Assembly: GCA_000025185.1 (NCBI GenBank) | Contig: CP001848.1 | Span: forward strand, 1,590,001-1,622,000 | Length of the DNA: 32,000 nt | Reading direction: 5' to 3' | Source of the DNA: Pirellula staleyi DSM 6068 | Lineage (GTDB): Bacteria > Planctomycetota > Planctomycetia > Pirellulales > Pirellulaceae | Part shown: piece after piece, positions 10,884 to 30,896 of the stretch | Position numbering within the stretch: position 1 is the stretch's first letter | Layout of the letters: each line of letters starts with the position of its first letter | Program-made: the position numbers and the translations under genes | Notes under the pieces: model-generated | The model's input: only the letters and a program-made list of their open reading frames with translations | Database searches by the model: none | Told to the model about the DNA's origin: nothing

Positions 10884-12080
10884 TTACTTGCGAGCCAGCG
10901 GATGTTTGATCGGCAGGAACGAGCCCCCTTGCTGGCTGCTCGCCACGCACTGCTCGATGAAGTACATCCCTTCCACGCCGTCGTGGATGTTCGGATAAAC
11001 GGTATCCTTCGTCTCGAACGGTTTGCCTTCAGCGCGGAGGATCATCGCGTCGTAAGCAGCGCGATAGATGTTGGCAAACGCCTCGAAAAACGCTTCAGGG
11101 TGTCCGCTCGGCAAACGGCAAGCAGCGCGGCCCATGTCGTTCATGTGCGGCGCGTTCGGATCACGGGTGTAGATCTTGTGAGGCTGTCCGTTCGCGCGTA
11201 CGACCATCGCGTTCGGCTCTTCTTGACGCCACACGAGCGAACCCTTCGTGCCGTCGATTTCGATCCACATGTCGTTCTCGCGACCATGGCTGATCTGCGA
11301 CGCAGTGACCGTTCCCAGCGCGCCGTTTTCGAACTTCACGATCGCGGTGCCGTAGTCGTCGAGCGCTCGCCCCTCTTCAAACGTTTTGAGATGGCAGCTG
11401 ATCGTTTCAGGGAGCAAGCCGGTCATGTAGCGCGCCAGGTTGTAGGCGTGCGTGGCGATGTCGCCGAAACAGCCAGCGATGCCACTCTTCTTGGGATCGG
11501 TCCGCCAGGCAGCCTGCTTTTGATCGCTCAGCTCCAGTCGCGTCCGGAGCCAGCCTTGGATGTAAAACGCGCGGATGGCGTTGATTTCACCGAGCTCGCC
11601 GCTGGCGATCATCTGCCGCGCTTGTCGCACCAGTGGATAGCCGGTGTAGTTGTGGGTGACGGCAAACACCACGCCCGACTTCTTCACCACCTCGGCCAGC
11701 TCTTCAGCCTGCTTCAGGTCAAAAGTCATCGGCTTATCGCAAATGACGTTGAAGCCCGCTTCAGCGGCGGTCTTGGCGATTTCGAAGTGGGTGTGATTGG
11801 GGGTGGCGACCGAAACGAAGTCGATCCGCTGATCGGCTGGCAGGGCGAGTTCCTTCTCGACCAGCTCGTGGATCGAGCCATAGGCCCGGGCGACAGGGAT
11901 ATCGTAATCAGGTGCCGAAGCTTTCGACTTTTCGGCATTGCTCGAGAGGGCACCGGCGACGAGGACCGCGCGGTTATCGAGGACAGCAGCAGTGGCGTGG
12001 ACCCGGCCGATGAACGACCCTTGTCCGCCGCCGCAAAGAGCCATCCGCAGCTTACGGTTGAGGCTTCCGTTGGTGGTCAT
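10884..12080 (-). CDS. Gfo/Idh/MocA family oxidoreductase
   Basis: 398 aa. N-terminal Rossmann motif (MALCGGGQGSFIGRVH), ATPNHTHFEIA and ICDKPMT (an EKP-type motif), and a typical C-terminal alpha/beta domain. Confidence 0.85.
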   Translation of the reverse strand: MTTNGSLNRKLRMALCGGGQGSFIGRVHATAAVLDNRAVLVAGALSSNAEKSKASAPDYDIPVARAYGSIHELVEKELALPADQRIDFVSVATPNHTHFEIAKTAAEAGFNVICDKPMTFDLKQAEELAEVVKKSGVVFAVTHNYTGYPLVRQARQMIASGELGEINAIRAFYIQGWLRTRLELSDQKQAAWRTDPKKSGIAGCFGDIATHAYNLARYMTGLLPETISCHLKTFEEGRALDDYGTAIVKFENGALGTVTASQISHGRENDMWIEIDGTKGSLVWRQEEPNAMVVRANGQPHKIYTRDPNAPHMNDMGRAACRLPSGHPEAFFEAFANIYRAAYDAMILRAEGKPFETKDTVYPNIHDGVEGMYFIEQCVASSQQGGSFLPIKHPLARK

Positions 12081-12240
12081 GGAGAGAGTTTCCTACAGAA
12101 AACGAGACGACAAAAGCGAGCGCGCGAACCGATCGCAAAACGCGATCGATCTAGGGCCGATGTTGTAGCACACCGCCGCCCCCTGCGGCAGATAGTCCCC
12201 CTTCGAGAGCCGATTTTTCGGGCGCTGCTGTTCCGTAGTC

Positions 12241-12390
12241 CCGTAGGTCGGCTACCCCGTAGCCGACAACGAATGCGGCTTCTATTTATTGAGACCGTCG
12301 ATGGGTGAGTGGCAATCAAATCGAGCCCATCATTAATCAGGCGACCATGGAGCGGTTAGACAAGTGTCGGCGAAAGGTGTAGCCGACCTA
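12241..12390. repeat. ~150-bp nested-palindrome repeat element, copy A (diverged centre)
   Basis: The left end cgtaggtcggctac-ccc-gtagccgaca contains a 9-bp hairpin (12247-12267). The right end is gtcggcgaaaggtgtagccgaccta. The terminal 12 nt taggtcggctac are inverted at both ends. The family is shared with 15036-15185 and 16341-16480. Confidence 0.7.
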
Positions 12391-12496
12391 ACAACCTATC
12401 CTGCATCAACATTGGCCATTCGACCACGCTGCACGTGAACGTGAATAGAGAGTCAGGTAGGGGTAGCTACCTACCAACTGAGGTTTAATAATGTTA

Positions 12497-12524
12497 TTGC
12501 ATTTAATTGAAGTGGGGATATAAT
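12497..12524 (+). promoter_or_regulatory. Sigma70-like promoter TTGCAT-16 nt-TATAAT directly abutting the cassette start codon
   Basis: ttgcat is at 12497-12502 and tataat at 12519-12524. The ORF starts at GTG12529/ATG12532, 5-8 nt after the -10 box, which implies a leaderless or near-leaderless transcript. Confidence 0.4.
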
Positions 12525-12528
12525 TTCA

Positions 12529-12891
12529 GTGATGAAGCCAATTATCGGCGACAAAGTCCGGGTAAAAGCGACCAAGGAACGTGGGGTAGTCGAGAGTCTC
12601 GATGGCCGCAAGATACAGGTGCGCCTTGAAACTGGTTTGCTCACACCCGTTACGGAATTGGAGATCACGAACTACAGCATGGCGGCACGCAAGGCTTGGA
12701 AAAGCATGCCGAACCGACGCGTAGGGCGACCGAATGGAACAACAACAACAGACCGTGTTTCCGTGACGCTCCGAATCGACCGTAAGCTTTGGGAAGCGTT
12801 CAAAAGTGCTGAAGAGCGTGGCGCAGTAGCCGATCGCACGGCAACGATTAACAAATGGATTTCAGAGAAACTACGCCAACTCGAAGCGTAA
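12529..12891 (+). CDS. Small protein with a KOW/SH3-like N-terminus and a ribbon-helix-helix-like C-terminus (putative regulator)
   Basis: 120 aa. The N-terminus is [29 protein letters not shown]. The C-terminal [23 protein letters not shown] has the strand-helix pattern of RHH/CopG proteins. It is the first gene of the cassette. Confidence 0.5.
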
Positions 12892-12920
12892 ACACGGAAT
12901 GCCTCTCGAAAGGAATGGGG

Positions 12921-13649
12921 ATGGCTCAAAATTCAGGAATCGAATGGACGGAGGCGACTTGGAATCCGACTACGGGATGCACGAAGGTGAGTCCCGGATG
13001 TGCACACTGTTATGCCGAACGCATGGCCCATCGACTGCAAGCGATGGGGCAGCCTCGGTATGACCAAGGATTCGATCTCAAACTCCAAGAAGACATAGTC
13101 GAGTTACCTCTCCAGTGGAAGAAGCCTCGTGTCATTTTCGTCAACTCGATGAGCGACCTATTCCACAAAAAGGTGCCGGATGAGTTTATCCGTCGGTGCT
13201 TTCAGGTAATGAAACAAGCCAGCCAGCATAAGTTTCAAGTCTTGACTAAGCGCCCTGAGCGAGTGGTCGAGCTTGGTAACGAATTGGAATGGGGGGATAA
13301 CGTCTGGATGGGAACTAGCGTTGAGAATGCCACATACCTTCGACGCGTTCGCGTCTTGAAACGAGTACCGGCTAAGATTCGCTTCCTTTCCATCGAGCCG
13401 TTATTGGGAGCGATACCACGATTGCCCTTGAAGGGTATTCACTGGGTCATTGTCGGTGGAGAGTCTGGTCCGCAATCACGTCCAATGAAGCCAGACTGGG
13501 TTAGAAATATCCGAGACCAGTGTGTCGCAGGCGAAGTCCCATTCTTCTTCAAGCAGTGGGGGGCATTTGGTGCCGATGGCGTGCACAGGACGAAGAAAGC
13601 GAACGGACGGGAACTGGATGGTCGAATATGGAGTGAAATGCCATCATGA
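12921..13649 (+). CDS. DUF5131 / phage Gp37-Gp68 family three-Cys-motif protein
   Basis: N-terminus [35 protein letters not shown] (Cys-x6-Cys-x2-Cys), then [10 protein letters not shown] and VIVGGESGP motifs, matching my recollection of PF07505. The ORF is open from 12855. ATG12921 (or ATG12915) was preferred because aagga lies just upstream and it avoids overlap with the previous gene. Confidence 0.8.
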
Positions 13650-14989
13650 GTGATGTACCGCTGTTACCGGGGATGGAGCCATTCGTTGCCGCGAAGCCCC
13701 CGAAGGAAAAAGCGAAAAAGAACAACTCTCAGTACCTCTGGATTCCGGGGGAGGATCCGCCTGAACTAGGTCAACACAGTTTGGCGAAGCATCGGATTCT
13801 TCGGAACTATCTCGAGACTTACGTCGCAATTCTTACCTCCAATCGAGTCGTCGAAAAGCTTAATCTTTCGCTGGTGGACGGGTTTTCTGGCGGAGGGGCA
13901 TATCGAAGCCCAGTGACCGGCGAAAGGATTGCCGGCTCACCCATACTGATGTTGGACGCGATGGCATCGGCAGAAGCAAGGGCGAACGAGGGAAAAACGA
14001 AGCCGTTCAAGATCGACGCCGACTTCTACTTCATCGAGCAACAGAAGCCGACGATTGAGTACCTCACGCATGAGATTAGTGAATGCGAATCCGCTCACGG
14101 AAAACACGAACAGATTCATATACTTCCCGGTAGCTTTGCGCAACACATTGATCGGGTCATCAAAGAGATAAAGTCCAAGGGGCGGCGACATCGCGCCATC
14201 TTTCTGCTCGACCAATACGGCTACACCGATGTCACGCTTGTGAACATTAGGAAGATATTTCGCGAGCTTCCTTTCGCCGAAGTAATTCTCACGTTCGCAG
14301 TCGATTGGCTTGCCGATTTCGTGAACGAGTCAGAGAAGTTCGAATCTGCGCTCCGGAATTTGGAACTATCAGACAAGCGGGACTTGCTTGTGCAGATACG
14401 GCAGCAACACGCGGCTGACTGGCGACCGACGATTCAGCACTTGTTGCATCAACATTTCTATGAGAAAAGCGGGGCTGACTGCTATACGCCATTCTTTATC
14501 AACTCGACTGAATCTCACCGAGCCTATTGGCTGCTGCACTTTTCAAAACACGCAACTGCACGAAATGCAATGGTCGATCTACATTGGAGTATGCAGAATC
14601 ACTTTCAGCATTTTGGCAAAGCGGGTTTCGAAATGCTTCTTGGCTACGATCCAAGTAAAATAAATGATTCTAAAATGCTGCCATTCGATTTCGGCTCGGA
14701 TGCAGCGTCACAAACGCACGAATCTCTGCTCATCGGGCTGCCTGAACGTCTTTCAAGGTTTGGGGAAACGATCTCCTTTAAGCACTTCTTTGAGACGGTG
14801 GTCAATGAAACGCCCGCGACGAAACAGATGATTGCAATAGCTGCTCGACAATTGACAAAGGACCATGAAATCGAAGTTATTAGAGCTGATGGTAAGTTGC
14901 GAAAGAATGGTGTAATTATTCATGACGATGATCTGCTTCGTCTGCCTGCAACCAAGTCACTTTTCCTGCCGAGAAAAGATGATAAATAG
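13646..14989 (+). CDS. tcmP: Three-Cys-motif partner protein (TcmP-like)
   Basis: 447 aa, with its start overlapping the DUF5131 stop (ATGA at 13646-13649). The call rests on the conserved partner position next to a DUF5131 protein and an N-terminal region ([15 protein letters not shown]...[13 protein letters not shown]) that fits my recollection of TIGR04474. It has not been verified by HMM. Confidence 0.65.
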
Positions 14990-15035
14990 CGAAGAAAAAC
15001 GTTCCAAGAATCTCATTTCCTAGAAATACTCAATT

Positions 15036-15185
15036 CCGTAGGTCGGTTACCCCGTAGCCGACAACGAATGGAGTTCCCATTTTGAGCGAGCCGAGACTGG
15101 CGATGAATTCGAGCGACGAGCCGAACGGTAGGCTGGCGAGAATGGAGCGCTGAGGGGAATGTCGGCTACGGTGTAGCCGACCTAC
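15036..15185. repeat. ~150-bp nested-palindrome repeat element, copy B (best preserved)
   Basis: The 27-nt terminal inverted repeats cgtaggtcggttaccccgtagccgaca and tgtcggctacggtgtagccgacctacg have 2 mismatches. Each terminus is itself a 9-bp-stem hairpin (gtcggYtac NNN gtagccgac). Confidence 0.75.
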
Positions 15186-15239
15186 GTACTAAGACCTGCG
15201 AACTTGTGAATGTCGCGAGTCGCTTTGCCACTTAAAGGT

Positions 15240-16340: not shown

Positions 16341-16480
16341 GTGGAGCGGTAGCCGACAGCAGATTCAGTCATCACTTTGAGCGAGACTTGATCGGCGATC
16401 AATTCAAAACACGAGCCGATCCGGAGGCTCGCGAAAATGGTGCGATGAGAAGAGTGTCAGGTACGTGGTACCTGACGTAC
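16341..16480. repeat. ~150-bp repeat element, copy C (left arm partly missing, right arm diverged)
   Basis: The centre (tttgagcgagacttgatcggcgatcaattcaaaacacgagccgatccggaggctcgcgaaaatggtgcgatgag) aligns with copy B. The right end tgtcaggtacgtggtacctgacgtac keeps the hairpin architecture with a changed stem sequence. Confidence 0.6.
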
Positions 16481-18215
16481 TACTTCGTCTAGCAATCAAT
16501 GTCATACTGCAATCTGTAGGCTGCAATCGAGTGTGCCACTGGGCTCTGCCCAGTGAGAAGTGTAGGTGGACTCTACGATTTTAGGCAGATTTCGCCCAAA
16601 ACATCGGTTCCAGCTTCTGCACTGGCGAGACGCCAGTGGCACCCAAAAACACCTGACATTGATCGCTAGACGTCGTACTACTAATTCGCGGCCGATTTAC
16701 GAAGTCAGTCGCTGCGAAAGAGTCAAGAACGGCTCCGGCCGGTGGTTTGGGTTTGCTCGAGGAGGGTCTGAAGCTGTTTGACGATTTCCGGTTTTTGAAG
16801 ATAGAGATTGGTGGTCTCGCCGGGGTCGGTATCGAGATCATAGAGTTGACCGGGCGCTTCGGGAGCACTATCGGGTAGAGCAAACGGTTTCATCAGTCCT
16901 TGCTCGTAGTTGTTGCCGCCCGAGCCGCGATGGTCGATGTATTTCCAGTTGCCGCGGCGAATCGAAAGCGTTCGTGCTCCGCCAAAAGCCTGCGTGAGCA
17001 GATAAGGGCGAATCGGAGCATTAGCTGTCCCTTCGAGGACGGGAAGCATGTTCAAGCTGTCTTCAGCCGCATCGCGATCGAGTTCTGCGCCGGTGATGGC
17101 GGCGACGGTCGCCATGATGTCGGTCAAGCTGGTTAGCTCGGCGCTGGTTGTGTTTGGCTTTACGTGTCCAGGCCAGCGAACGATCAGTGGCAACCGGTGC
17201 CCCCCTTCCCAGGCGTCGCGTTTAACACCGCGCCAAGGTTTCGCGCCGTCGTGCTGGTGATCGGCCCGCATGTGGACAACCGTAGTTGTTTCGGGGCCGT
17301 TGTCGCTCGTCAGGATGACCAGCGTGTTTTCGGCGAGTCCATGCTTGTCGAGAGCCTGCATCAGCTGGCCCACGATGTGATCGAACTGGCAGAGAAAATC
17401 GCCATGAGGTCCAACCTCTGTCTTGCCGCGAAAGTCTTTTCCAGCAAATGATGGAAGGTGTACAGCCTGCGTGGCATGAAAGAGGAACAGCGGTTTCTGA
17501 GGCGAGGTGCGTGCGTGTTCTGCGATGAATTCGAGGCTCTTTTGCAAAAAGATTGTGTCGACCTCTTGCATCTCAAAGTCAGGCGCGATGAGTCCCAGGC
17601 GACAATCTTCCGAATACGGATGACTGGGCAATGTCGAGCGCTTTAGCAAACTGGTGGGAGGAGTTGGGATATGGTCGCCATCGATAAAGGCGTAGAGCCA
17701 ATCGGTCGTAGGACAGCAGGCGGTCCCGAAGAAGTGATCGAAACCATGATCGATAGGGCCCCCTTCGATGCGGCGCGAGAAATCAACCCGGCGCACAGCG
17801 TCGACTCCCGACGTCTTGATCGGCTCGCCACTGCTGTCTCGAAAGGTGAGACCGACATGCCATTTGCCGACAGCAGCAGTGACATAGCCTTGCTGCTGGA
17901 GCATGGCGGGGAGTGTGAGACGTCCCGGCGTGATGAGCGAAGGTCCACCGACTCCGGTGAAGACGGTGCCGCCGCCCGGCACGCGAAACGGCATCTGACC
18001 GGTCATCAGACCGTAACGCGACGGCGTGCAGACGGTCGATGGACTATGGGCGTCGGTGAATCGCATCCCTTCACGCGCGAGGCGATCGATGTTGGGTGTG
18101 GGAACCTTCGCGTCGGGGTTGTAGCAGCGCACATCGCCATAGCCGAGATCGTCGGCAAGTATAAGCACTATATTAGGTACACGGCCAGAGTCGGCAGATT
18201 CAGCTGCATTTCCTA

Positions 18216-19074
18216 GAGCCTGTTATTGACTTATCTGCTTGAAATTGCTGTAGTTAGGGGATGAAACACACGACAGGGAAGTCGTATCCCAGCGACGTAA
18301 CGGATGCGGAGTGGGAATTCCTGCTCCCTTACTTAAGCCTCATGCGCGAGGATGTGCCGCAGCGCGCCTATTCACTGCGCGACCAGTTTAACGCCATGCG
18401 CTACGTGGTGAAAACAGGAATCCAGTGGGACTTCCTGCCGCATGAAATGCCTCCGTGGCGGGCCGTCTATCAACAAATGCGACGCTGGTTCGAAGCGGGA
18501 GTCTTTGAGGAAATTGCGCAAGACCTCAGGCTGATGGTGCGTCTTTTGGAAGGACGTGACGAACAGCCAACCGCTGTGATCATGGATGCTCGAACGCTGC
18601 AATCGACTCCTGAAAGTGGAGGCCGCGCGGGATACGACGGCGCGAAGAAAAAGAAGGGTTCGAAGGCCAATATTGCCGTCGATACACTGGGAAATCTGCT
18701 GGCGGTTTACATCACTGCAGCCAATGAGCAAGACCGCGACCAAGTCGCCATCCTCTCGCAGAGAGTGCAAGAGGTGACGGGCAGCAACGTGGAGATAGCG
18801 TACGTCGATCAAGGCTATACGGGCGCCGCAGCAGCCGAGCAGGCTGAAGCATCCTCGATAAGATTACAAGTTATAAAACATACCGAGACCAAGCGAGGCT
18901 TTGTCCTATTGCCACGCCGCTGGGTTGTTGAGCGCACCTTTGGTTGGCTGAGTCGCTTCCGCCGTCTCGCGCGTGATTATGAGAGACTCACCGTCACGCT
19001 CACCAACTTCCACTGGCTCGCCTTCCTCACCATACTCCTCGCAAAAATCTACAGACAAAGTCAATAACTGGCTC
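18216..19074 (+). mobile_element. IS5-family insertion sequence, copy 1 (859 bp)
   Basis: Terminal inverted repeats GAGCCTGTTATTGACTT and AAGTCAATAACTGGCTC. Single 268-aa DDE transposase ORF. CTAG on both flanks. Confidence 0.9.
18261..19067 (+). CDS. IS5-family DDE transposase (with DUF4096-type N-terminus)
   Basis: 268 aa. YPSDVTDAEWEFLLPYL, GIQWDFLP and PWRAVYQQMRRW at the N-terminus, and VDQGYTG...RWVVERTFGWLSRFRRLARDYE at the C-terminus, typical of IS5/IS4-superfamily transposases. Confidence 0.9.
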   Translation: MKHTTGKSYPSDVTDAEWEFLLPYLSLMREDVPQRAYSLRDQFNAMRYVVKTGIQWDFLPHEMPPWRAVYQQMRRWFEAGVFEEIAQDLRLMVRLLEGRDEQPTAVIMDARTLQSTPESGGRAGYDGAKKKKGSKANIAVDTLGNLLAVYITAANEQDRDQVAILSQRVQEVTGSNVEIAYVDQGYTGAAAAEQAEASSIRLQVIKHTETKRGFVLLPRRWVVERTFGWLSRFRRLARDYERLTVTLTNFHWLAFLTILLAKIYRQSQ

Positions 19075-19272
19075 TAGGGAAAGTGTCGTTGCTGCAGCGA
19101 AGCTGGCAATGATTAGTGTAGCTGATTTGTGTAGTAAACGCATAGAATATTCTCAGGCTGCGAGTAGATAGTCGAAATGCGTATTGGCCGAAGTGACGGT
19201 GAACTTGATTCGACGTCAGTATCGGTGCAGCAAATTTCGCAGTCAACAAAGTCAATATATGGAGAGGCGTAC

Positions 19273-19740
19273 ATGGGCAAAAAGCGGAAGCTAAGACGAC
19301 AGCAACATGGTTAAGCTTGGCACTGGAAGCAAACTGACTCCTGGTACTACACCCTACCTGGTACGAAGAAGCGAATGGCCCTCTTCAACGAACAGGGCGA
19401 ACGAATCAAAGGCCTGGCCAAGAACTTCGAAGCGGAGCAGGCCCTCGCTAGGATCAAGGTCGGGCTGGCGGATAACGGGCCAGGATTTACGCCCGAGGGA
19501 GAATGGATCGTAGCCCGTGTCTGTTCTGACTACATCCAGTATTGCGAACGTGGTGTTCTCAAAGGGACCACCACTTCCGGGCATTTGCTCAGGACGATGT
19601 CTTGGCTAAACGACCTTTGTGCGTACTGTGGCGCATTGCCGCTTTCTCAACTCAAGAAGGGGCACATCACCACTTGGATTGAATCCCATCCGACGTGGCT
19701 AAGTACGGAAACCCACCGAAGTGTACTTTCTATTGTCCTA
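19273..19740 (+). pseudogene. Tyrosine-recombinase (phage-integrase-like) N-terminal fragment with an in-frame stop, truncated by IS
   Basis: ATG19273 is preceded by ggagagg. The reading frame gives MGKKRKLRRQQHG-TAA(19312-19314)-AWHWKQTDSWYYTLPGTKKRMALFNEQGERIKG...HITTWIESHP...RSVLSIV. This resembles the arm-binding plus SAM-like N-terminal domains of integrases. The frame runs into the IS end at 19741 and no catalytic domain is present. Confidence 0.45.
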
Positions 19741-20599
19741 GAGCCAGTTATTGACTTTGTCTGTAGATTTTTGCGAGGAGTATGGTGAGGAAGGCGAGCC
19801 AGTGGAAGTTGGTGAGCGTGACGGTGAGTCTCTCATAATCACGCGCGAGACGGCGGAAGCGACTCAGCCAACCAAAGGTGCGCTCAACAACCCAGCGGCG
19901 TGGCAATAGGACAAAGCCTCGCTTGGTCTCGGTATGTTTTATAACTTGTAATCTTATCGAGGATGCTTCAGCCTGCTCGGCTGCTGCGGCGCCCGTATAG
20001 CCTTGATCGACGTATGCTATCTCCACGTTGCTGCCCGTCACCTCTTGCACTCTCTGCGAGAGGATGGCGACTTGGTCGCGGTCTTGCTCATTGGCTGCAG
20101 TGATGTAAACCGCCAGCAGATTGCCCAGTGTATCGACGGCAATATTGGCCTTCGAACCCTTCTTTTTCTTCGCGCCGTCGTATCCCGCGCGGCCTCCACT
20201 TTCAGGAGTCGATTGCAGCGTCCGCGCATCCATGATCACCGCGGTTGGCTGTTCGTCACGTCCTTCCAAAAGACGCACCATCAGCCTGAGGTCTTGCGCA
20301 ATTTCCTCAAAGACTCCCGCTTCGAACCAGCGTCGCATTTGTTGATAGACGGCCCGCCACGGAGGCATTTCATGCGGCAGGAAGTCCCACTGGATTCCTG
20401 TTTTCACCACGTAGCGCATGGCGTTAAACTGGTCGCGCAGTGAATAGGAACGCTGCGGCGCATCCTCACGCATGAGGCTCAAATAGGGGAGCAGGAATTC
20501 CCACTCCGCATCCGTTACGTCGCTGGGATACGACTTCCCTGTCGTGTGTTTCATCCCCTAACTACAGCAATTTCAAGCAGATAAGTCAATAACAGGCTC
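19741..20599 (-). mobile_element. IS5-family insertion sequence, copy 2 (859 bp)
   Basis: Same inverted repeats and length as copy 1, in opposite orientation. CTAG on both flanks. The transposase differs from copy 1 at 2 aa. Confidence 0.9.
19748..20554 (-). CDS. IS5-family DDE transposase
   Basis: 268 aa, near-identical to the copy at 18261-19067 (V31A, A35S). Confidence 0.9.
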   Translation of the reverse strand: MKHTTGKSYPSDVTDAEWEFLLPYLSLMREDAPQRSYSLRDQFNAMRYVVKTGIQWDFLPHEMPPWRAVYQQMRRWFEAGVFEEIAQDLRLMVRLLEGRDEQPTAVIMDARTLQSTPESGGRAGYDGAKKKKGSKANIAVDTLGNLLAVYITAANEQDRDQVAILSQRVQEVTGSNVEIAYVDQGYTGAAAAEQAEASSIRLQVIKHTETKRGFVLLPRRWVVERTFGWLSRFRRLARDYERLTVTLTNFHWLAFLTILLAKIYRQSQ

Positions 20600-20613
20600 T
20601 AGGGAGATTTGTT

Positions 20614-21324
20614 GTGATTCCGGCCGAGAATAGCTCGTGTGTTGTACTGGTCCCGGTTGGCTCACAGATTGAACCTGCATGTGAAGCAGGCCTCAAAGAC
20701 CTAGAAAAACGGGGTTATCCAGTTTGGCGAGTAAGGGGATATGCAGCGATCGATCAGGGTCGCAATCAGATGGCGACTGATGCGATTGCGCAAGGATTCA
20801 AAGAAACGATGTGGATCGATTCAGACATTGCCTTTGACCCCAATGCAGTTGACCGCCTTCGAACGCATCAGCTGCCGATCACATGCGGCGTTTATCCGAA
20901 AAAGGGAAAGCGAGAACTTGCGATTCATGTACTGCCAGGCACAGAGAAGATCGTTTTTGGCAAAGATGCGAGCTTGACAGAGATCAAGTATGCCGCCACT
21001 GGATTCTTGCATGTCCGTCGTGAAGTTTACTTAAAAGTCCAGGCCGATCTCAAGCTCCCTCTTTGCAACACTCGATGGAAGAACCCGATGGTTCCATTCT
21101 TTATGCCGATGGTGCAACCAGAGTCCTGGGGAAGTTGGTACTTGGCCGAAGACTATGCTTTTTCAGAGCGAGCAAGGCGATGCGGCTACCAGGTTTGGGC
21201 TGATACTTCGATCCGGCTGGGACACATCGGCAGCTATAGCTACAGCTGGGAAGATGCTGGAAGTGATACGAAGCGATTCGCTAGTTACACTTACCATCTC
21301 ACGGACCAAAAAAATGAGTCCTAG
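20614..21324 (+). CDS. GT-A-fold (family-2-like) glycosyltransferase
   Basis: 236 aa. The order VVLVPVGSQIEP, then AIDQGRNQMA, then MWIDSDIAFDP (a DxD-type motif), then YLAEDYAFSERARRCGYQVWADTSIRLGHIG matches the layout of small GT-A glycosyltransferases. GTG start with gggag 8 nt upstream. Confidence 0.6.
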   Translation: MIPAENSSCVVLVPVGSQIEPACEAGLKDLEKRGYPVWRVRGYAAIDQGRNQMATDAIAQGFKETMWIDSDIAFDPNAVDRLRTHQLPITCGVYPKKGKRELAIHVLPGTEKIVFGKDASLTEIKYAATGFLHVRREVYLKVQADLKLPLCNTRWKNPMVPFFMPMVQPESWGSWYLAEDYAFSERARRCGYQVWADTSIRLGHIGSYSYSWEDAGSDTKRFASYTYHLTDQKNES

Positions 21325-21398
21325 TCGTGGCAAATGGAATTGTCGGGATGACGCACTGACCCAACCGTCAAGAGATAACCGCTGTAGAGAATAGAGCA

Positions 21399-22211
21399 AT
21401 GATTAACACTTATTGGTGGCAAGGAGGCGGTGGCTCAAGAAATTTTGGTGACAAACTTGGACCGGCTCTGATAGAGCAACTTAGCGGTAAGCGGGTTTGC
21501 CACTCCACGATCGAAGACAGCGACATCCTTGCTATAGGAAGCGTTCTAGAACCCTGGTTTTGGCCGAAAGACTCCTGGCGCAAGTACAGTGGAGCAATTT
21601 GGGGAGTGGGGCGCATGTTTGGGCAAGTTCCATTCGATCTTCCCGCTGCAAATTCTATCGCAGTTCGAGGGCTACTCTCCAAAAGTCGGCTGGCTAATTC
21701 AGTTAACCGAGAGGTGGTCACTGGCGATCCTGGACTACTCTGTCCTCTGCTGCATCACGGTTTGACAGGGCCAGCCCGCAAACTCGGCGTTTGGCCACAC
21801 TGGAGTGAACTATCGCACCCGGCGTTCAAAACACTCGCGGCAAGTTCCCCAGACATCACGTTCATTGATCCCTGCGGTGATATTCGGGAAACACTAGACC
21901 GAGCCAGCAAATGTGAATTCATCGCCTCGTCGTCACTACATGGCTTGATTACGGCGGATGCCTTGGGGATTCCCAGGTGCTGGCTTCGCCTCAACACCGG
22001 AAATGAAGATCGGGCAGGTATGCCCGAGTTCAAGTACCGCGACTATTTTTCTGTCTATTCATCCCCCCCTCCTGATCCATTGCTCCTCTCCTCGACCACT
22101 CGCTTAGCCGAAATCGTCCAAAATGCCTCTTCGGTGGATCGTAACGAAGTGTGTCTCATCCAGACGACGCTGGCAAAGTGCTTTCCCTTTGGGAAAGCCC
22201 CAACAATCTAG
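21399..22211 (+). CDS. Polysaccharide pyruvyl transferase family protein
   Basis: 270 aa. N-terminal NFGDKLGPALIEQLSG and C-terminal SSSLHGLITADALGIP resemble the two hallmark segments of PS_pyruv_trans (CsaB/WcaK-like) proteins. Confidence 0.6.
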   Translation: MINTYWWQGGGGSRNFGDKLGPALIEQLSGKRVCHSTIEDSDILAIGSVLEPWFWPKDSWRKYSGAIWGVGRMFGQVPFDLPAANSIAVRGLLSKSRLANSVNREVVTGDPGLLCPLLHHGLTGPARKLGVWPHWSELSHPAFKTLAASSPDITFIDPCGDIRETLDRASKCEFIASSSLHGLITADALGIPRCWLRLNTGNEDRAGMPEFKYRDYFSVYSSPPPDPLLLSSTTRLAEIVQNASSVDRNEVCLIQTTLAKCFPFGKAPTI

Positions 22212-22274
22212 CGATTCAACTCAACAAGAGTGTGCTCTCGTTTTCATCTCGATGATTGACTACTCAAGACCGCT

Positions 22275-23531
22275 TTGGTGGTTCACATGCATGCATTGTT
22301 TTTGTTGAAGAACAGCAGGGCCAACGATGAAGAGTTGCGTTTTACCCTGAGGTCTGTTGCACTAAATTGGCCATGGATTACGAAGGTCTGGATTTTTGGA
22401 GACCGTCCGCATTTCATGGCAGATTGTCCAGAGCGTATCGAACATGTTCCTCATGAGTACATAGCGAGAGTCAGTGGTTTTCGGACACCGGTACGCAACA
22501 TGTTTCTGATGACCTACCTCGCATCACTTCTTCCAGAGCTTTCGGCAGAATTCATGCTCTGCACCGACGACACGGCAATACTTCATCCAATGAGCTTGGA
22601 AGATGCCAGTATCGTGAGGTACATCGAGGATCTAAAGGAAGTGAAATCACGCGGTACTGGGCTATGGAAAGATGCCCTATGGAGAACGCACGACACGCTG
22701 AAGCGGTTAGGGTATCCGTCACTCAACTTTGAAGCCCACGTTCCCTCCGTATTCAGCAAGAAGCAAGTTATCGAAGCCTATTTCGACTTGCGCGATTTTG
22801 TGAGCGAGGATCGGTTCTATGGCCTGCTCGTCAAGACAGCGGTCTATTCACACACCATGAAGAATCGCAAGTTTCCGATAGTTCGACTCAAAGATGAGCA
22901 GAGTGTCGCTGGATTCCATCATCGCCCAGCCAGCTACGAGGCGATCGAATTGGCTAGCCGAGGTAAAAAATTCCTCAACTTCGACGATGATGCGTTCGAC
23001 CAGGCCATGGTGCAGTACTTGACGACGAGGTTTCCTGAACCGTCGTGTTTCGAGAACCCACTTGCTCCACCTCCGGCGATTTCACCCCGACAAGAGAGCT
23101 TCGAGGGAATCGCAACGTCACCCTGGACAGGCGCATTCCCACGCAGGATTGTGGTCGCCTGCCGTAATTTTCCGGCACTACCGATTCTCCTGAAACAGTT
23201 GAAATTGCTCCCGGCAGAGTCTCTACTTCACTGTGTTGGATTGCCACAAACGGTTGCTGCTGAGCTGGATGGCTCTCGCGTGAAGATATCGAACGACCTA
23301 GCGACAGTGATCGAAGCTACGAAGACCAGCAGCATCGCAATTGCTTGGGACTGCAAGCCGATGGAGGAGCGTGCAATTCAAATGAAAGTACCTCTACTTT
23401 CACTGAACGACGCTACTTTCACACTCGGTGGATCTGGGGACACAACACCAGGCACGCGTCGAGAATTCGCATCTGTATCATCGCCTGCCATGATCATCGA
23501 TCGACTCCGCCATCTATGGGAGGGAATTTAG
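22275..23531 (+). CDS. Stealth-CR2-like capsule/glycan phosphotransferase-like protein
   Basis: 418 aa. NDEELRFTLRSVALNWPWITKVWIFGDRPHFM...HVPHE...LLPELSAEFMLCTDDTAIL parallels the Stealth CR2 pattern (ELRYSLRS..APW..I.IVTD..P.WL..H..IF...LP.FNS..IE...GLSE.FLY.NDD). ATG22287 is an alternative start. Confidence 0.5.
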   Translation: MVVHMHALFLLKNSRANDEELRFTLRSVALNWPWITKVWIFGDRPHFMADCPERIEHVPHEYIARVSGFRTPVRNMFLMTYLASLLPELSAEFMLCTDDTAILHPMSLEDASIVRYIEDLKEVKSRGTGLWKDALWRTHDTLKRLGYPSLNFEAHVPSVFSKKQVIEAYFDLRDFVSEDRFYGLLVKTAVYSHTMKNRKFPIVRLKDEQSVAGFHHRPASYEAIELASRGKKFLNFDDDAFDQAMVQYLTTRFPEPSCFENPLAPPPAISPRQESFEGIATSPWTGAFPRRIVVACRNFPALPILLKQLKLLPAESLLHCVGLPQTVAAELDGSRVKISNDLATVIEATKTSSIAIAWDCKPMEERAIQMKVPLLSLNDATFTLGGSGDTTPGTRREFASVSSPAMIIDRLRHLWEGI

Positions 23532-23576
23532 ACAGCCTTGCACCGTTCCTTTTCTCCCATTTTGGGGGAGAAAACA

Positions 23577-23604
23577 TTGACTGCTCGTTTGGGGAGGGTA
23601 TATT
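23577..23604 (+). promoter_or_regulatory. Candidate sigma70-like promoter TTGACT-16 nt-TATATT upstream of the giant gene
   Basis: ttgact is at 23577-23582 and tatatt at 23599-23604, about 87 nt upstream of ATG23691 in the 159-nt intergenic gap. Confidence 0.35.
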
Positions 23605-23690
23605 CACCCCCGCTATGACCACTACCATCGGTAAAAATGGTGTGGCCTCGGTGAAAACTAGCTGCCTCCCGAACACCAGGACTTTGCACC

Positions 23691-26600
23691 ATGCCCATTC
23701 GGCACCTCCTTCGTCTCCTGAACATGGTTCGTAGCGTTTCAGATTCCAAGCGAAAGGAAGCGATCAAGCGGTTTCGTCGCCTGCGACATGAAGCACTTGA
23801 AGTCCGAGCGGTGATGGATGGCGAACTTGCTGAACTGCTGACAAGCGGCTCTCCGTTCACTGCCCCGCAATCGCAACTTGAATACTCATCGACTCCCCCC
23901 CAAGGCTACATGTCCGAGTCCGACAGTTATGGTGCGGAAGGCGAAGGGAGTGGAGGAGGAAGCGGTTCAGGAGGAAGTAGCTCCTCGGGTGCGGCAATCT
24001 GGGTCTCAGTAGACAACTCGCACATCTACGAGCAGGGGAGTCCTTCAACTGCGCTCTTTACGTTTACTCGCGACAATACCGCTGGTGCGATCACCGTCAA
24101 TTTCACACTGGGCGGTAGTGCCACTTCTGGAAGCGATTTCAGTGCAGCCACTCCCCATTCGGTGACAATCCCGAACGGCTCTACCTCAGCCACTTACTCG
24201 ATAAGCTCCATTAACGATTCTGTGGCGAACGAGGGAAATGAAACGGCCAATTTATCGCTGACTCCCCCGAGTGGATATTACGCAATTACATCCTCTGCGT
24301 CGGTCACGATCGTTGACGACGACTTTTATGGATCGGGCGGAGGCAGCGGCGCAGGTAGTGGCAGCGGCGCAGGTAGTGGCAGCGGCGCAGGTAGTGGCAG
24401 TGGTTCAGGCGGTGCCTCCGGCAGTGGTTCAGGCGGTGCCTCCGGCAGTGGTTCAGGCGGTGCCTCCGGCAGTGGTTCAGGCGGTGCCTCCGGCAGTGGT
24501 TCAGGCGGTGCCTCCGGCAGTGGTTCAGGCGGTGCCTCCGGCAGTGGTTCAGGCGGTGCCTCCGGCAGTGGTTCAGGCGGTGCCTCCGGCAGTGGTTCAG
24601 GCGGTCTCATTTGGCTGGATGTTGATTCACTTACCATCCACGAAAGCGGCGGCAACAGCACTGCTGTGTTTACATTTGAACGAGACACCACCGATGGTGA
24701 TGTCACAATCAATTTCACCTTCGGTGGAAGTGCAGCCATCGGTTCTGACTATACCCCTTCGATTGGCTCACCATACTCCGTCACAATCCAAGATGGTCAA
24801 ACAACCGCGACCTTGTCAGTCACAGCGATTGACGACTTGCTGGTAGAAGCCTCTGAAACGGTATCAGTATCCTTCACGACCCCAGAGAACTACACCTCAC
24901 TCAACAGCAGCGAATCAGTTCTCGTCAGTGACGACGACTATGGAACTTCAGGCGGAGGAAGTGGCAGTGGCAGCAGTAGCGGGGCGGGTGGTGCTGAAAC
25001 TACGGTGTCGGTGACTTCATTACATACAAGTGTTGCTGAATCATCCGAAACAAATGTAATATTTACATTTACGAGAACTGGCCCGCTCGACCAATCGCTA
25101 TCTGTCAATTACACACTAGATTTTTCTCAAGCTAATCTTGGCGAAGACTACATTCTCACCGAAGGTACTGTAGGCGAGGTTACCTTTTTAGCCCAAGAAT
25201 CAAGTGCAATAGTTTCATTTTCCATAATCGACGATGTGATTAGTGAATATGACGAATCCATCGATATCGCAATAGAGGAACAGCCTGAGCTATATGAAAT
25301 AGGATCAGATTCATATGCATCCGCTCTGATTGAGGATGACGACGAAATCGATTTCTCCTTTGCAGGAATTCAGGTTGACGAGGGAAGTGGTCGAGTGAGC
25401 ATGTTGATCGAAATTGCGTCACCAACTCAACGTGAGCACCAACTCCAATTATCCGTTATTGGCGGAACCGCGACTTCAGGAAGTGACTACGAGGTCGTAA
25501 CACAAACAAATCAGGTCATTAACATAACTGAAAACACGGTGCTGATTGGTGTCGAAATAAATGTCAAGGACAACACCTCAGACAATCCTGATCGCACAGT
25601 TGATCTCAGGGCTGAGATTGATGGAGTTGTGAGAACAGCAGTTTTGACAATCGTCGACAATGACGACGCCACTTTAACTCTTATGCATGATGACAATGTC
25701 GTATTTGAGGGAGATTATCTGCGGCTGACAGGGCAAGTTTCGTATGCAGGTGTGATGCCTGAATTCGTTGAATTTTACCTTGGCAGCAGTCAGCAAAGTA
25801 TCGGCACGTCTACAGTATCTCAGGATGGCACATTTGAACACTATCTCAGAATCGAAGACGACGAGCCAGACGACCAGCCGAATGGCGTTGGAGTTGACTC
25901 AATTGAAATTAGGGCCGTTGCATCTCTAGGCGGGAACGAAAGCATTGAAAGCACGGTGTCTGCCGAGGTTTCAAACCTTCCTCCAGAGATCGATAATGTT
26001 TTTATTTATAACACGAACGATCTCTCCATACCAATTGACACGATTGGCCAAGATGGTGGCGAGATAACCCTATACCTAGACTTGAAGGATCGCGGTGAAA
26101 TCGACACTCATCTGCTTAACATTGACTGGGGAGACGGGTCGTCTCCCACAATCATCGAAGTCACCGCAGGGGAATACGCCATCCAACATGTATATGCCGC
26201 ACTTCCAGTTGAGCTCGAAGGGCAATCGCATGGCTACGACATTGTTATAACAGCGGTGGACGACGACGGTGGCGAGGGAACGGCAAGCACTTATCTTGTA
26301 GCGAATGCCGGCGACTCGGAAGATGTAGAACTCTGGATCACTGCACCAACTACTGGAAATGTTGCGAGCGAAGTACGCAGAAAATCGGCAGTTTTTACCG
26401 TCCACAGAGATAGCGGCGACGGCCAATTATTGGTTGACTTGGCTCGGTCAAGCTCGGCTACAGCTGACAGACTAGATTATTTTGTATCCGTCTCTGGAAA
26501 TGCCCGCTATGCGCAATCCCCAGACGGAAGACTCTTGGTCACGTTTCCAGATGGAGTAGATACGGTAACTATCACCTTGCTCCCGAGACTCGACAACCTA

Positions 26601-28193
26601 GATGAAGGAACAGAAACAATTGGGTTTGAAATAGCCGCCTTGCGGGGACAGACCTACACCACAAGACAAGGCCAGGAGTCGGTTGAGATCGAGCTTGAGG
26701 ACGGGCATTATGTCGTAACGTTTCTAGAGCCTCCAACAACAACGTACCAAGAAACTCGCGAACGAAACGACGTATTCGGTGAGTCCAATCGCGAAATCAC
26801 AGTAAAGGCTCGCTTGTGGCGAGACCTTTCTGAAAGCTTCTTTTTTCAGACTGTTAGCGTACCGATATCCTATACCGGGAGCTCTGCAACACCGACGGAT
26901 GACTTTATAGCAATGGACTCGATGCTTTTCAGCCCTGCGCGTGAGCCAATTGCTACGCTCAGAATTGGGATAATCGACGATACCATAATTGAAATCGATG
27001 AGGTCATTAACATTGGAATCGGAGCGACAGGCGGATTTACCCAAGAAGCTGGCACTCAATCCTATAGCTACACAATCATTGACGATGACGAAAGAACATT
27101 AAGCGTCTCCCTAGAAACAGACACTCGCACAGAGAATCATATAAATCTGACTGGGCTCCCCTCTGCCGAATTTGGGAAAAACCTCGTCAAAGTCGAAATA
27201 AGCATAGGCGAAATTGCCGCAGAAGATTTTCTTGTGAATGTCTCATTAAAAGGAATCGCAAGTTATGGACAGGACTTCACAATTTCAAGATACAGGATTT
27301 CGCAGCGATGGACAATTCTAGACCCCTTTAACTCCAGTGTTCGCGATGCCAGATCGATAGAAGACTTTCAGTTCTCTGACCACACAGACGTTTTTGTTAA
27401 ATCTGACGGACACGGTCAGCTCAAAATATTTAAGGGAGAGATGAGTGCCATTCTGTGGATTAAAGTGCTTGATGACACTGTTCTTGAGCCCTCTGAGAAT
27501 ATTAAGATATCCGTTACACCCGAAGTAACAGAAGAGTTCGTCAACCATAAAGCAGAGGACACCTTACACCTCCATAGCGATGACGAACTACCACCAAACA
27601 CCGATGGCAATGAATGGGAACTTGTGTTTGAGCCTAGCTCCGTTACGCTTTACCCAACCTACCTGGCCGACGACAATACACCTCAGGAATGGCTTTATGA
27701 AGATGGTGGCTGGTATAGAATCAAACATGTGATCGAAAAAGTGAGGGCGAGCTCCACCCCCATAGTCACTAATTATGGTGAGTCCCTAACCAGCAAAGGC
27801 AGTTGGTCAATGGGGTTCTCGGCTAGTCGGTCGTTTGAATTCAGCATTGGCATAGCCAATGAGATAACAAAAAAGATCGGCCTTCAAGGCTCTTATACAT
27901 TCGGGCAACAGACTTCACAAGAATTTTCAGTTGAGCGAAATTACGATCCTGATGGTGATGATGTAATTGGCGAGAGTGGAGATGATGTTCGCTGGGCTGC
28001 TTACAGGATCGTATCTCAGTCATTTATTTACCGAGATTTTATTCCAGATCCACTTCACGACCGCTTTGCAGGCTATCCCCCATCCGGCGCTGAAGCAACT
28101 CAGGACATTACCTCATCGAGTATGCTTGACAGTTTTTACCGAAAGGACGGAGTCGACGTCCAGGTGTACAAGCAGACGCGATCACAGGATTAA
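23691..28193 (+). CDS. Giant (1500 aa) multi-Calx-beta repeat extracellular protein with a PKD-like module, Gly/Ser linkers and an unassigned C-terminal domain
   Basis: At least 7 modules carry the Calx-beta signature (e.g. FTFTRDNTAGAITVNFTLGGSATSGSDF...SISSINDSVANEGNETANLSL; VIGGTATSGSDYEV). One PKD-like module is present (NIDWGDGSS...VITAVDDDGGEG). There are three Gly/Ser linkers, and the N-terminus is a basic RFRRLRHEALEVRAVM motif. Confidence 0.85.
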   Translation: MPIRHLLRLLNMVRSVSDSKRKEAIKRFRRLRHEALEVRAVMDGELAELLTSGSPFTAPQSQLEYSSTPPQGYMSESDSYGAEGEGSGGGSGSGGSSSSGAAIWVSVDNSHIYEQGSPSTALFTFTRDNTAGAITVNFTLGGSATSGSDFSAATPHSVTIPNGSTSATYSISSINDSVANEGNETANLSLTPPSGYYAITSSASVTIVDDDFYGSGGGSGAGSGSGAGSGSGAGSGSGSGGASGSGSGGASGSGSGGASGSGSGGASGSGSGGASGSGSGGASGSGSGGASGSGSGGASGSGSGGLIWLDVDSLTIHESGGNSTAVFTFERDTTDGDVTINFTFGGSAAIGSDYTPSIGSPYSVTIQDGQTTATLSVTAIDDLLVEASETVSVSFTTPENYTSLNSSESVLVSDDDYGTSGGGSGSGSSSGAGGAETTVSVTSLHTSVAESSETNVIFTFTRTGPLDQSLSVNYTLDFSQANLGEDYILTEGTVGEVTFLAQESSAIVSFSIIDDVISEYDESIDIAIEEQPELYEIGSDSYASALIEDDDEIDFSFAGIQVDEGSGRVSMLIEIASPTQREHQLQLSVIGGTATSGSDYEVVTQTNQVINITENTVLIGVEINVKDNTSDNPDRTVDLRAEIDGVVRTAVLTIVDNDDATLTLMHDDNVVFEGDYLRLTGQVSYAGVMPEFVEFYLGSSQQSIGTSTVSQDGTFEHYLRIEDDEPDDQPNGVGVDSIEIRAVASLGGNESIESTVSAEVSNLPPEIDNVFIYNTNDLSIPIDTIGQDGGEITLYLDLKDRGEIDTHLLNIDWGDGSSPTIIEVTAGEYAIQHVYAALPVELEGQSHGYDIVITAVDDDGGEGTASTYLVANAGDSEDVELWITAPTTGNVASEVRRKSAVFTVHRDSGDGQLLVDLARSSSATADRLDYFVSVSGNARYAQSPDGRLLVTFPDGVDTVTITLLPRLDNLDEGTETIGFEIAALRGQTYTTRQGQESVEIELEDGHYVVTFLEPPTTTYQETRERNDVFGESNREITVKARLWRDLSESFFFQTVSVPISYTGSSATPTDDFIAMDSMLFSPAREPIATLRIGIIDDTIIEIDEVINIGIGATGGFTQEAGTQSYSYTIIDDDERTLSVSLETDTRTENHINLTGLPSAEFGKNLVKVEISIGEIAAEDFLVNVSLKGIASYGQDFTISRYRISQRWTILDPFNSSVRDARSIEDFQFSDHTDVFVKSDGHGQLKIFKGEMSAILWIKVLDDTVLEPSENIKISVTPEVTEEFVNHKAEDTLHLHSDDELPPNTDGNEWELVFEPSSVTLYPTYLADDNTPQEWLYEDGGWYRIKHVIEKVRASSTPIVTNYGESLTSKGSWSMGFSASRSFEFSIGIANEITKKIGLQGSYTFGQQTSQEFSVERNYDPDGDDVIGESGDDVRWAAYRIVSQSFIYRDFIPDPLHDRFAGYPPSGAEATQDITSSSMLDSFYRKDGVDVQVYKQTRSQD
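24342..24605 (+). repeat. Perfect in-frame tandem repeats: 3 x 18 bp followed by 8.75 x 24 bp
   Basis: ggcagcggcgcaggtagt occurs 3 times (24342-24395, encoding GSGAGS). ggcagtggttcaggcggtgcctcc occurs 8 times plus an 18-nt partial unit (24396-24605, encoding GSGSGGAS). I could see no substitutions between units. Confidence 0.95.
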
Positions 28194-28196
28194 CGC

Positions 28197-30701: not shown

Positions 30702-30896
30702 TAGAACAAAACGACGAACCAACGTTGTCTTACCGCTACCTAGGTCACCGACGACAACGATCGGATGCGGGACCACGTCGCGCGCATTTAGCAACTGATC
30801 CAGCGTGTCTAATGCGTCGGGTAATTCACCTTCGTGTTGCAGCTCAAGTGGCGTGCACGGAGTATCGCGGAACACTTGGCGATACTCCCTTTCCAC
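30702..30896 (-). pseudogene. 5' fragment of a P-loop NTPase gene truncated by IS copy 3
   Basis: (GTG)EREYRQVFRDTPCTPLELQHEGELPDALDTLDQLLNARDVVPHPIVVVGDLGSGKTTLVRRFV contains a Walker A motif (GDLGSGKT). The frame runs straight into the IS inverted repeat. The remainder of the gene is not on the other side of the IS. Confidence 0.55.

Follow-up and report, generated by a model that had tools for sequence, protein, structure and literature searches.

Anatomy of a DUF5131/TcmP gene pair in Pirellula staleyi, a candidate radical-SAM-type system for nucleic acid modification

Introduction

Spore photoproduct lyase (SplB; PDB 4FHF and 4K9R), a radical S-adenosylmethionine (radical-SAM) DNA repair enzyme, and RlmJ of Escherichia coli (PDB 4BLV, 6QE0 and 7P9I), a stand-alone housekeeping enzyme that methylates 23S rRNA (m6A2030), are the solved structures that most closely resemble models of two protein families, DUF5131 and TcmP, respectively. 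The genes of these families recur side by side in bacteria and their mobile elements. Here, we describe the DUF5131/TcmP pair that is encoded, together with a small upstream gene, in a 32,000-nucleotide stretch of DNA (hereafter the window). This DNA originates from Pirellula staleyi DSM 6068, and the top database matches of the first and the third gene are 100% identical proteins of that genome. We refer to the three open reading frames (ORFs) as ORF1 (the small gene), ORF2 (DUF5131) and ORF3 (TcmP).

The closest described systems are PDC-M30 and PDC-M41, which resemble the locus in their adjacent, co-directional genes and in their island and mobile contexts. Of 100 P. aeruginosa strains, 32 were predicted to carry PDC-M30 (PMC10855318). 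The component hidden Markov models (HMMs) of PDC-M30 and PDC-M41 in PADLOC both hit adjacent genes in the window (PDC-M41B, 3e-114; PDC-M30B, 5e-111; PDC-M30A, 3e-28). Unlike these candidates, the window version adds a clade-specific gene for a putative regulator, in which a KOW domain is combined with a ribbon-helix-helix (RHH)-like tail, and a conserved, apparently leaderless promoter/operator. In addition, its TcmP comprises 447 amino acids versus 281 to 381 positions in the PADLOC models. The pair itself is known as an anti-phage candidate; the locus presented here adds a member and its anatomy, namely an RlmJ-like fold in which motif IV is altered, a spore-photoproduct-lyase-like fold, the boundaries of the module and a portable KOW-RHH/operator unit, and opens no new question.

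Results and discussion

DUF5131 and TcmP are encoded as a pair across genomes

DUF5131 adjoins TcmP in 105 of the 107 loci that we compared (80 genomic, 22 viral and four other loci, and the window), in agreement with an earlier note on this DNA, which had described the two families as a recurrent partner pair. The exceptions are a locus in which the TcmP match begins 144 bp from the contig end (L081) and one without DUF5131 in the 10 kb upstream of TcmP, whose contig ends 8 bp past this gene (L089). DUF5131 precedes TcmP on the same strand in 81 loci and follows it in nine; 11 pairs are divergent and four are convergent. The pair is very widespread. It is found in Planctomycetota, Myxococcota, several classes of Proteobacteria, Nitrospira and other taxa, in actinophages, and on plasmids and prophages, and word-filtered searches returned nearly 2,000 relatives of TcmP and at least 8,000 of DUF5131. 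DUF5131 diverges more slowly than TcmP, as illustrated by Gimesia algae (80% versus 55% identity). Clustering of the 549 proteins encoded in the neighborhood of the pair gave 492 clusters and thus no conserved third gene, and we rejected a conserved third member for all loci outside the Planctomycete clade.

Separately, a second, divergent TcmP-like paralogue was seen next to the pair in L045, L063, L075, L077 and L079 (for example at 7882-9036 of L079). This paralogue is PDC-M41A-like and carries the GMT-type winged helix-turn-helix (wHTH) domain described below.

ORF2 resembles spore photoproduct lyase

ORF2 matches the Pfam HMM PF07505 from end to end (367.1 bits compared to a gathering threshold of 28.9, E value 5e-110, model positions 1 to 243 of 243) and PHROG 2045; the earlier assignment to DUF5131 thus passed this check. 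Translation most likely starts at the ATG at 12921, because the homologues begin with MAQNS, and with this start ORF2 does not overlap ORF1. The residue numbers used for ORF2 refer to a 244-residue query translated from 12915. Near the N-terminus, the cysteine triad that had been noticed before (C22, C29 and C32) is indeed present and is invariant in 50 DUF5131 homologues.

We compared an AlphaFold2 model of DUF5131, built on the homologue alignment (predicted local distance difference test, pLDDT, of 83), with the PDB using Foldseek. The top four matches are all spore photoproduct lyase, followed by generic triosephosphate isomerase (TIM) barrels and a few other radical-SAM enzymes; NifB, LIAS and BlsE are also found, with template modeling (TM) scores of 0.43 to 0.47 across the matches and an E value of 2e-3. 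RadicalSAM.org lists DUF5131 as a subgroup of the superfamily, megacluster 5-2, beside spore photoproduct lyase as 5-3 (PMC9477430). SplB and DUF5131 have a partial TIM barrel, an N-terminal three-Cys loop and one RadicalSAM.org megacluster in common. In contrast to SplB, to which it is about 11% identical, DUF5131 is shorter by about 100 residues, spaces its cysteines as C-x6-C-x2-C instead of C-x3-C-x2-C and needs a partner gene. These data point to a small radical-SAM-type enzyme, in line with the Cys-triad enzyme postulated in the earlier note. The C-x6-C-x2-C motif would hold a [4Fe-4S] cluster, and the protein would be expected to cleave SAM.

A further relative is TIGR04471, named "radical SAM mobile pair protein A" and thus, by its name, also half of a mobile two-gene pair. 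It is homologous to ORF2 (E value 1.6e-25, residues 40 to 234 of the 264-residue ORF), but ORF2 is not a member, as its score of 90 bits is far under the equivalog cut-off of 355.

The TcmP model is RlmJ-like but deviates in motif IV

The start of ORF3 lies within the stop codon of ORF2, and the ATGA overlap reported for 13646-13649 was confirmed. The protein was identified as TcmP by the NCBIfam HMM TIGR04474, which it matches at residues 43 to 315 with 237 bits (cut-off 53), as the earlier assignment had predicted. All 70 aligned TcmP homologues carry PF22560 ("GMT-like wHTH"), which spans residues 334 to 416 in the window protein. We considered that "GMT" in this name stands for the Gamma-Mobile-Trio and rejected it: the paper on that system has GmtX as StbA-like and mentions neither a wHTH nor a methyltransferase.

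In the same 70 homologues, the motif VDGFxGGGxY is conserved with invariant D78, F80 and G82 to G84, so the reading of this segment as methyltransferase motif I (D-x-F-x-G-x-G) was correct. The residue after beta-2 is acidic (position 131, E in 61 and D in 9 sequences), motif IV consists of D189-Q190-Y191-G192, which are invariant or nearly so, and a His-rich segment is invariant at H298, H302, R306, H313 and H322. The catalytic core is more conserved (0.60 to 0.74) than the helical insert and the wHTH (0.48 to 0.50), a contrast that fits conserved chemistry combined with variable target recognition.

An AlphaFold2 model of TcmP, likewise built on the homologue alignment (pLDDT 85; predicted TM score, pTM, 0.84), has RlmJ as its first match in the PDB (E value 1e-7; TM score 0.5 to 0.56 on the target). 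There were 61 matches with an E value of 1e-3 or lower, and the 50 listed are nearly all methyltransferases. The model thus contains a class-I SAM-methyltransferase core, as the earlier suggestion of a SAM-binding Rossmann partner had implied. By sequence, TcmP matched neither RlmJ nor any other PDB entry, and no Pfam methyltransferase family matched among the 70 homologues.

For a direct comparison, E. coli rlmJ was read from the MG1655 record, and segments outside the part aligned by hhalign were matched by eye. Motif I (VDGFxGGGxY in TcmP, LDTHAGAGRY in RlmJ) and the Asp of motif IV (D189 in TcmP) are alike. By eye, the likeness extends to an N-terminal K-H helix (HSLAKH versus HADVLKH), to a helix that starts with GSPLI in both proteins and to the acidic residue after beta-2. 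In contrast, motif IV is DQYG(Y/F) in TcmP and DPPY in RlmJ, and TcmP therefore deviates from the amino-methyltransferase pattern (D/N/S)PP(Y/F/W); TcmP also adds the His-rich segment, the helical insert and the wHTH. Whereas RlmJ acts on its own, TcmP is mobile and always accompanied by a radical-SAM-type protein.

Relatives of the pair reside on mobile elements and among defense genes

The earlier note had proposed an island context, and the pairs in related loci do sit in mobile and defense contexts. Their immediate neighbors include HipA, XRE-type helix-turn-helix proteins, AbiEii-like ATPases, MmeI/type IIG enzymes, PglX, MADS components, a retron, DarT/DarG and CBASS. Housekeeping genes also occur next to the pair, and the neighborhoods are heterogeneous. 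On the Acidovorax plasmid p1-T1 (L147, 948-11223), co-directional genes encode a DNA methyltransferase, a DEAD/DEAH helicase, a GIY-YIG nuclease, DUF5131, TcmP, a second, shorter TcmP and a PIN protein, and the pair may here be part of a larger restriction-like operon. On pSymA of Sinorhizobium meliloti, it is found beside HD, AAA, exonuclease and radical-SAM genes as well as ThiF and a CD-NTase. In the list of S. meliloti genes that are up about 2-fold in the nolR+ strain, TcmP (SMa2243) immediately follows the Hna defense gene (SMa2245; PMC12445080).

With respect to mobility, a tyrosine recombinase lies within 3 kb of the pair in 14 of 100 non-redundant loci, and an integrase is located directly upstream of the pair on a P. 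luteola plasmid. TcmP was found on 65 plasmids, 30 of which are conjugative, and on 22 viral contigs of IMG/VR. In isolated phages, 181 records contain DUF5131 and only six contain TcmP. In the Gordonia phage ThankyouJordi (L144, 3492-6070), the pair is located between the integrase and the immunity repressor. The TcmP-like gene, annotated as "methyltransferase", follows the repressor gene by 4 nt on the same strand, which suggests expression in the lysogen.

Many isolated phages, for instance phi1026b (L145, 3501-4472) and Squirty (L146, 3501-4433), encode a longer DUF5131 of about 310 to 323 amino acids and no detectable TcmP. In these two phages, the gene lies among genes of which most are annotated as hypothetical, in Squirty beside a DNA methylase. 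The longer DUF5131 suggests a partner-independent form of the enzyme.

A proposed two-subunit enzyme and competing explanations

The combination of a spore-photoproduct-lyase-like radical-SAM protein with an RlmJ-like fold that retains SAM-binding motifs but lacks the catalytic DPPY leads to a testable hypothesis, the radical modification of a flipped base. We propose that DUF5131 and TcmP would form one two-subunit enzyme that acts on nucleic acid, more likely on DNA. TcmP would find the target site by its variable helical insert and its wHTH and present a flipped base in the methyltransferase-like pocket. DUF5131 would then perform radical chemistry on this base or on a group installed by TcmP. 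Prophages, integrative elements and plasmids would carry the pair as cargo for biological conflicts. A modification-based anti-phage function, as implied by the candidate PDC-M30, is the role that we consider most likely, with belief and doubt about this whole reading in balance. A more far-reaching version is that the pair constitutes a new kind of enzyme, in which a sequence-reading methyltransferase-fold adaptor that has lost DPPY flips a base for a minimal radical-SAM subunit, the resulting new base modification of DNA (or RNA) is used by mobile elements for immunity or escape from restriction, and the KOW-RHH protein and its operator are a portable switch that other conflict operons also employ; this version is tentative, and we would rather expect it to be wrong in some part.

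A number of observations weigh against an anti-phage modification enzyme. Concerning the chemistry, DQYG replaces the DPPY that defines amino-methyltransferases, and TcmP may consequently not methylate at all. The alignment of the TcmP profile with RlmJ by hhalign is weak (E value 0.027) and includes motifs I and IV only. The match of DUF5131 to spore photoproduct lyase is marginal (E value 2e-3, TM score 0.46), its cysteine spacing is not the canonical one, and sequence profile searches revealed no relatives of solved structure for either protein. Most phages with DUF5131 carry no TcmP, so this enzyme can work in another setting. Concerning the biological role, PDC-M30 and PDC-M41 are non-validated candidates obtained by "guilt-by-embedding" (PMC10855318). 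Our literature searches found no functional study of DUF5131 or TcmP and returned annotation-level mentions only, consistent with the earlier statement that the pair has no assigned function. The genes that directly flank the module in the window, a Gfo/Idh/MocA gene and a gene for 331 amino acids, are ordinary and not defense genes. Finally, the conserved unit comprises no nuclease or other effector, so the basis on which a modification would discriminate phage from self is not evident, and the lack of such an effector keeps alternative explanations alive.

The foremost of these is counter-defense or self-protection, in which the pair places an unusual modification on the DNA of its element and of the host and thereby protects the element from restriction once it has been transferred; the function would be anti-restriction and not immunity. 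The chemistry would be identical to that proposed above. The pair travels on prophages, on elements with an integrase and on conjugative plasmids (30 of the 65 plasmids with TcmP), and DUF5131 is common in phage genomes, sometimes near DNA methylases. Both observations are in accordance with this possibility, as is the absence of an effector or nuclease conserved with the pair. However, defense is likelier than counter-defense because the pair is embedded among bona fide defense genes (CBASS, DarTG and a retron), because TcmP adjoins the repressor of a temperate phage in a position that suggests expression in the lysogen, and because TcmP is almost absent from isolated phages. We therefore regard counter-defense as an unlikely explanation, albeit one to be taken seriously.

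DNA repair, in which DUF5131 would reverse a DNA lesion by radical chemistry and TcmP would be the lesion-recognizing, base-flipping subunit, is suggested by spore photoproduct lyase being both the nearest solved fold and a member of the same RadicalSAM.org megacluster, and by loci in which the pair lies beside DarT/DarG, the maker and the remover of a DNA adduct. A repair function is nevertheless improbable, given the marginal structural match, a patchy distribution on islands that reflects horizontal transfer and shows no link to repair genes, and the conserved SAM-binding motifs of TcmP, which would be dispensable for lesion recognition.

Viperins are antiviral enzymes of the radical-SAM type with free nucleotides as substrates. 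By this precedent, DUF5131 could make an antiviral or signaling molecule from a nucleotide or a SAM-derived metabolite, with TcmP assisting by nucleotide binding or tailoring and not acting as a nucleic-acid enzyme. In favor of this route, any nucleotide could fit the Rossmann fold of TcmP, and the motif IV of this protein is non-canonical. However, the wHTH in all 70 TcmP homologues and the invariant RlmJ-like N-terminal helix both point to a polymer substrate, and the nearest fold of DUF5131 is a DNA enzyme and not viperin. We give this small-molecule route little credence.

Extent and mobility of the module in the window

The coordinates of the features are listed in Table 1. The genes run in one direction from 12532 to 14989 in the ORF listing of the window, so that the three co-directional ORFs of the earlier note were recovered.

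Table 1 Features of the DUF5131/TcmP locus (positions within the window)
Feature	Position	Strand	Description
Shared module	12472..15005	+	blastn homology to L001 and L005; flanks unrelated
Promoter/operator box	12485..12524	+	AT-rich; TAAT..TTATTGCAnTTAA..GAG, 6 nt, TAnAAT
ORF1 (Psta_1289, 119 amino acids)	12532..12891	+	N-terminal KOW/SH3-like domain, RVGRP(K/N)G stretch, C-terminal BrnA-like ribbon-helix-helix
ORF2, DUF5131 / phage Gp37-Gp68 family (242 amino acids from ATG 12921)	12921..13649	+	PF07505; invariant C-x6-C-x2-C
ORF3, TcmP (447 amino acids)	13646..14989	+	RlmJ-like class-I methyltransferase fold at about 30-325, helical insert, wHTH PF22560 at 334-416
Repeat A	12241..12391		Palindrome of about 150 bp; each end a small hairpin GTCGGCTAC-N3-GTAGCCGAC; fold z -4.6
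Repeat B	15036..15186		Second copy; fold z -7.6
Repeat C	16349..16480		Degenerate third copy, 73% identical to B; fold z -1.9; past the next gene

ORF1 accompanies the pair only in a Planctomycete clade, which comprises the window and 10 other loci (L001, L002, L005-L010, L150 and L151); it is absent from the remaining loci, about 95 in number. In blastn comparisons with two of these trio loci, the window is 86% identical to L005 across 12483-15005 and 80% identical to L001 across 12472-14992, and the flanking sequences show no similarity to either of them. The module has a GC content of 50.1% compared to 57.9% in the left 12 kb of the window, and the GC content at third codon positions (GC3) is about 55% versus 64 to 76% in the neighboring genes, so the lower GC that had been estimated by eye was borne out. 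In L001 and L002, an integrase is encoded upstream of the trio, at the margin of a larger element. We conclude that 12472-15005 is a self-contained accessory module gained horizontally and composed of three parts, a clade-specific putative regulator, DUF5131 and TcmP. Being compact and equipped with a promoter and a regulator, this Planctomycete module of 2.5 kb would lend itself to cloning in one piece.

The ends of the module show neither a target-site duplication nor a terminal inverted repeat. An integron or tRNA-island reading was rejected: tblastn searches of the window with two Planctomycete integrases gave no match, no tRNA gene was found in the region, and no Rfam family matched across 11.5-17 kb. 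Immediately left of the conserved module, at 12454-12473, we noted a short GC-rich hairpin, CAGGTAGGGGTAGCTACCTA, with a terminator-like scan score on the minus strand. Further left, an ORF of 468 amino acids (10902-12308, plus strand) is antisense to a Gfo/Idh/MocA oxidoreductase gene (10884-12080, minus strand) and is in all likelihood a spurious shadow ORF of high GC.

ORF1 and its upstream box

For ORF1, which had been placed at 12529-12891, the end was correct, but the start is the ATG at 12532, identical to that of Psta_1289, and not the GTG at 12529. The ORF1 profile matches Spt5 KOW domains in the PDB (E value 2e-6), and the Pfam KOW model was matched in 11 of 48 ORF1 homologues. The RHH-like tail proposed before is reflected by weak but recurrent matches to BrnA_antitoxin, with E values of 0.05 or lower in 38 of the 48 homologues (3e-4 at best); the window protein itself scores 16.3 bits, under the Pfam threshold of 26.1. 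Between the two domains, an NYS-AARKAW...R-VGR segment, continued by P(K/N)G in most homologues, is invariant or near-invariant; it may be AT-hook-like, which is our own reading of the sequence. ORF1 may resemble the BrnA/DUF4415 antitoxins in its C-terminal strand-helix-helix, and some sources call the homologues "DUF4415 family". In contrast to these antitoxins, however, all matches of ORF1 stay below the Pfam threshold, an N-terminal KOW domain is present, a BrnT toxin is lacking, and ORF1 leads varied operons.

Among the trio loci, conservation of the approximately 40 nt upstream of ORF1 exceeds that of much of the genes themselves. The pattern of the box given in Table 1 is found in eight diverged trio loci, in which the bases between the constant positions vary and the ATG is fixed at 7 nt after the -10 element. 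In the window, the -10 element at 12519-12524 is a perfect TATAAT, separated by a 16-nt spacer from a -35-like TTGCAT (12497-12502), which agrees with the consensus at three of six positions. This hexamer is also the center of symmetry of the box and reads TTGCAA in several loci. The near-consensus promoter claimed earlier therefore holds for the -10 element and not for the -35 element, whose poor agreement is the reason why a generic consensus scan did not call the 12485-12524 site. Because the gap of 7 nt is constant and no Shine-Dalgarno sequence is present, the ORF1 transcript is apparently leaderless or near-leaderless.

Homologues of ORF1 with 58% identity lead operons in which a DUF87/HerA-like ATPase takes the place of the pair (L152, 4949-5925; L153, 5001-6795), and a related box lies upstream of them (TTATTGCAATTTATTAGAG in L152 and TTATTGTAATTTATTACAG in L153). 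Since ORF1 and the box are reused with other cargo, they look like a portable regulator-operator unit and not like a catalytic partner. As a putative autoregulator, ORF1 would bind the AT-rich box, whose dyad symmetry is centered on the -35 element of its promoter, and repress the leaderless operon. The weak BrnA_antitoxin signal in its homologues and the frequency of toxin-antitoxin genes in the neighborhood of the pair would also be compatible with an addiction module, in which ORF1 is the antitoxin to a toxic enzyme pair. We judge this very improbable, as the pair occurs without ORF1 outside the Planctomycete clade, the same family leads operons with the unrelated DUF87 ATPase cargo, and no BrnT-like toxin is present.

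The palindromic repeats

The nested palindromes of about 150 bp described in the earlier note are real, but the statement that the cassette sits exactly between copies A and B is loose, with gaps of 141 nt between A and ORF1 and of 47 nt between ORF3 and B. Both copies fold as hairpins of about 150 nt and have 27-nt ends in common. The 25-nt core, which consists of the hairpin and a GTAG extension, has three matches in the window versus none expected, and copy C lies 1.2 kb past B. Terminal inverted repeats, a long hairpin and three intergenic copies within the window are features typical of repetitive extragenic palindromic (REP) sequences and miniature inverted-repeat transposable elements (MITEs). 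The consensus R'/R'' core sites of integron attC elements were not recognized in the palindromes by eye.

It is hardly credible that A and B delimit a mobile cassette as its MITE-like or attC-like ends and move the three genes together, even though they bracket these genes with long hairpins and common ends: the palindromes are absent from 84 other loci, including modules that are 80 to 86% identical and nine of the 10 other trio loci (the tenth, L150/L151, lay outside the searched set), homology across genomes stops inside the repeats (81 to 92 nt right of A and 31 to 44 nt left of B), B and C equally bracket the next gene, which has a host-like GC content, and neither a target-site duplication nor an integrase match nor a tRNA gene was detected. 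In the metagenome collection, a search for the 25-nt core gave no hit and hence no paired copies; a shorter hairpin occurred there 36 times, each time single and unpaired, and these occurrences are unrelated. As B and C flank a gene of host-like GC, the repeat family is not specific to the cassette, and the packaging role that had been ascribed to it does not hold. We conclude that A, B and C are local intergenic elements of P. staleyi.

Other features of the window

The window also contains three copies of an insertion sequence (IS) of the IS5/IS4 family, each about 870 bp long (18212-19081, plus strand; 19737-20603, minus strand; 29836-30704, minus strand). Each copy encodes a DDE transposase of 268 amino acids, and the copies are 97 to 99% identical. 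Copies 1 and 2 are inverted and 658 bp apart; copies 2 and 3 are direct, about 10.1 kb from start to start, and bound a low-GC stretch. The region between them (20614-29000; 43 to 50% GC) encodes glycosyltransferase-like, Stealth CR2 and 1500-amino-acid Calx-beta proteins and possibly represents an island for surface structures or polysaccharides that resembles a composite transposon. The Calx-beta gene contains a tandem repeat with a period of 12 nt at 24329-24629.

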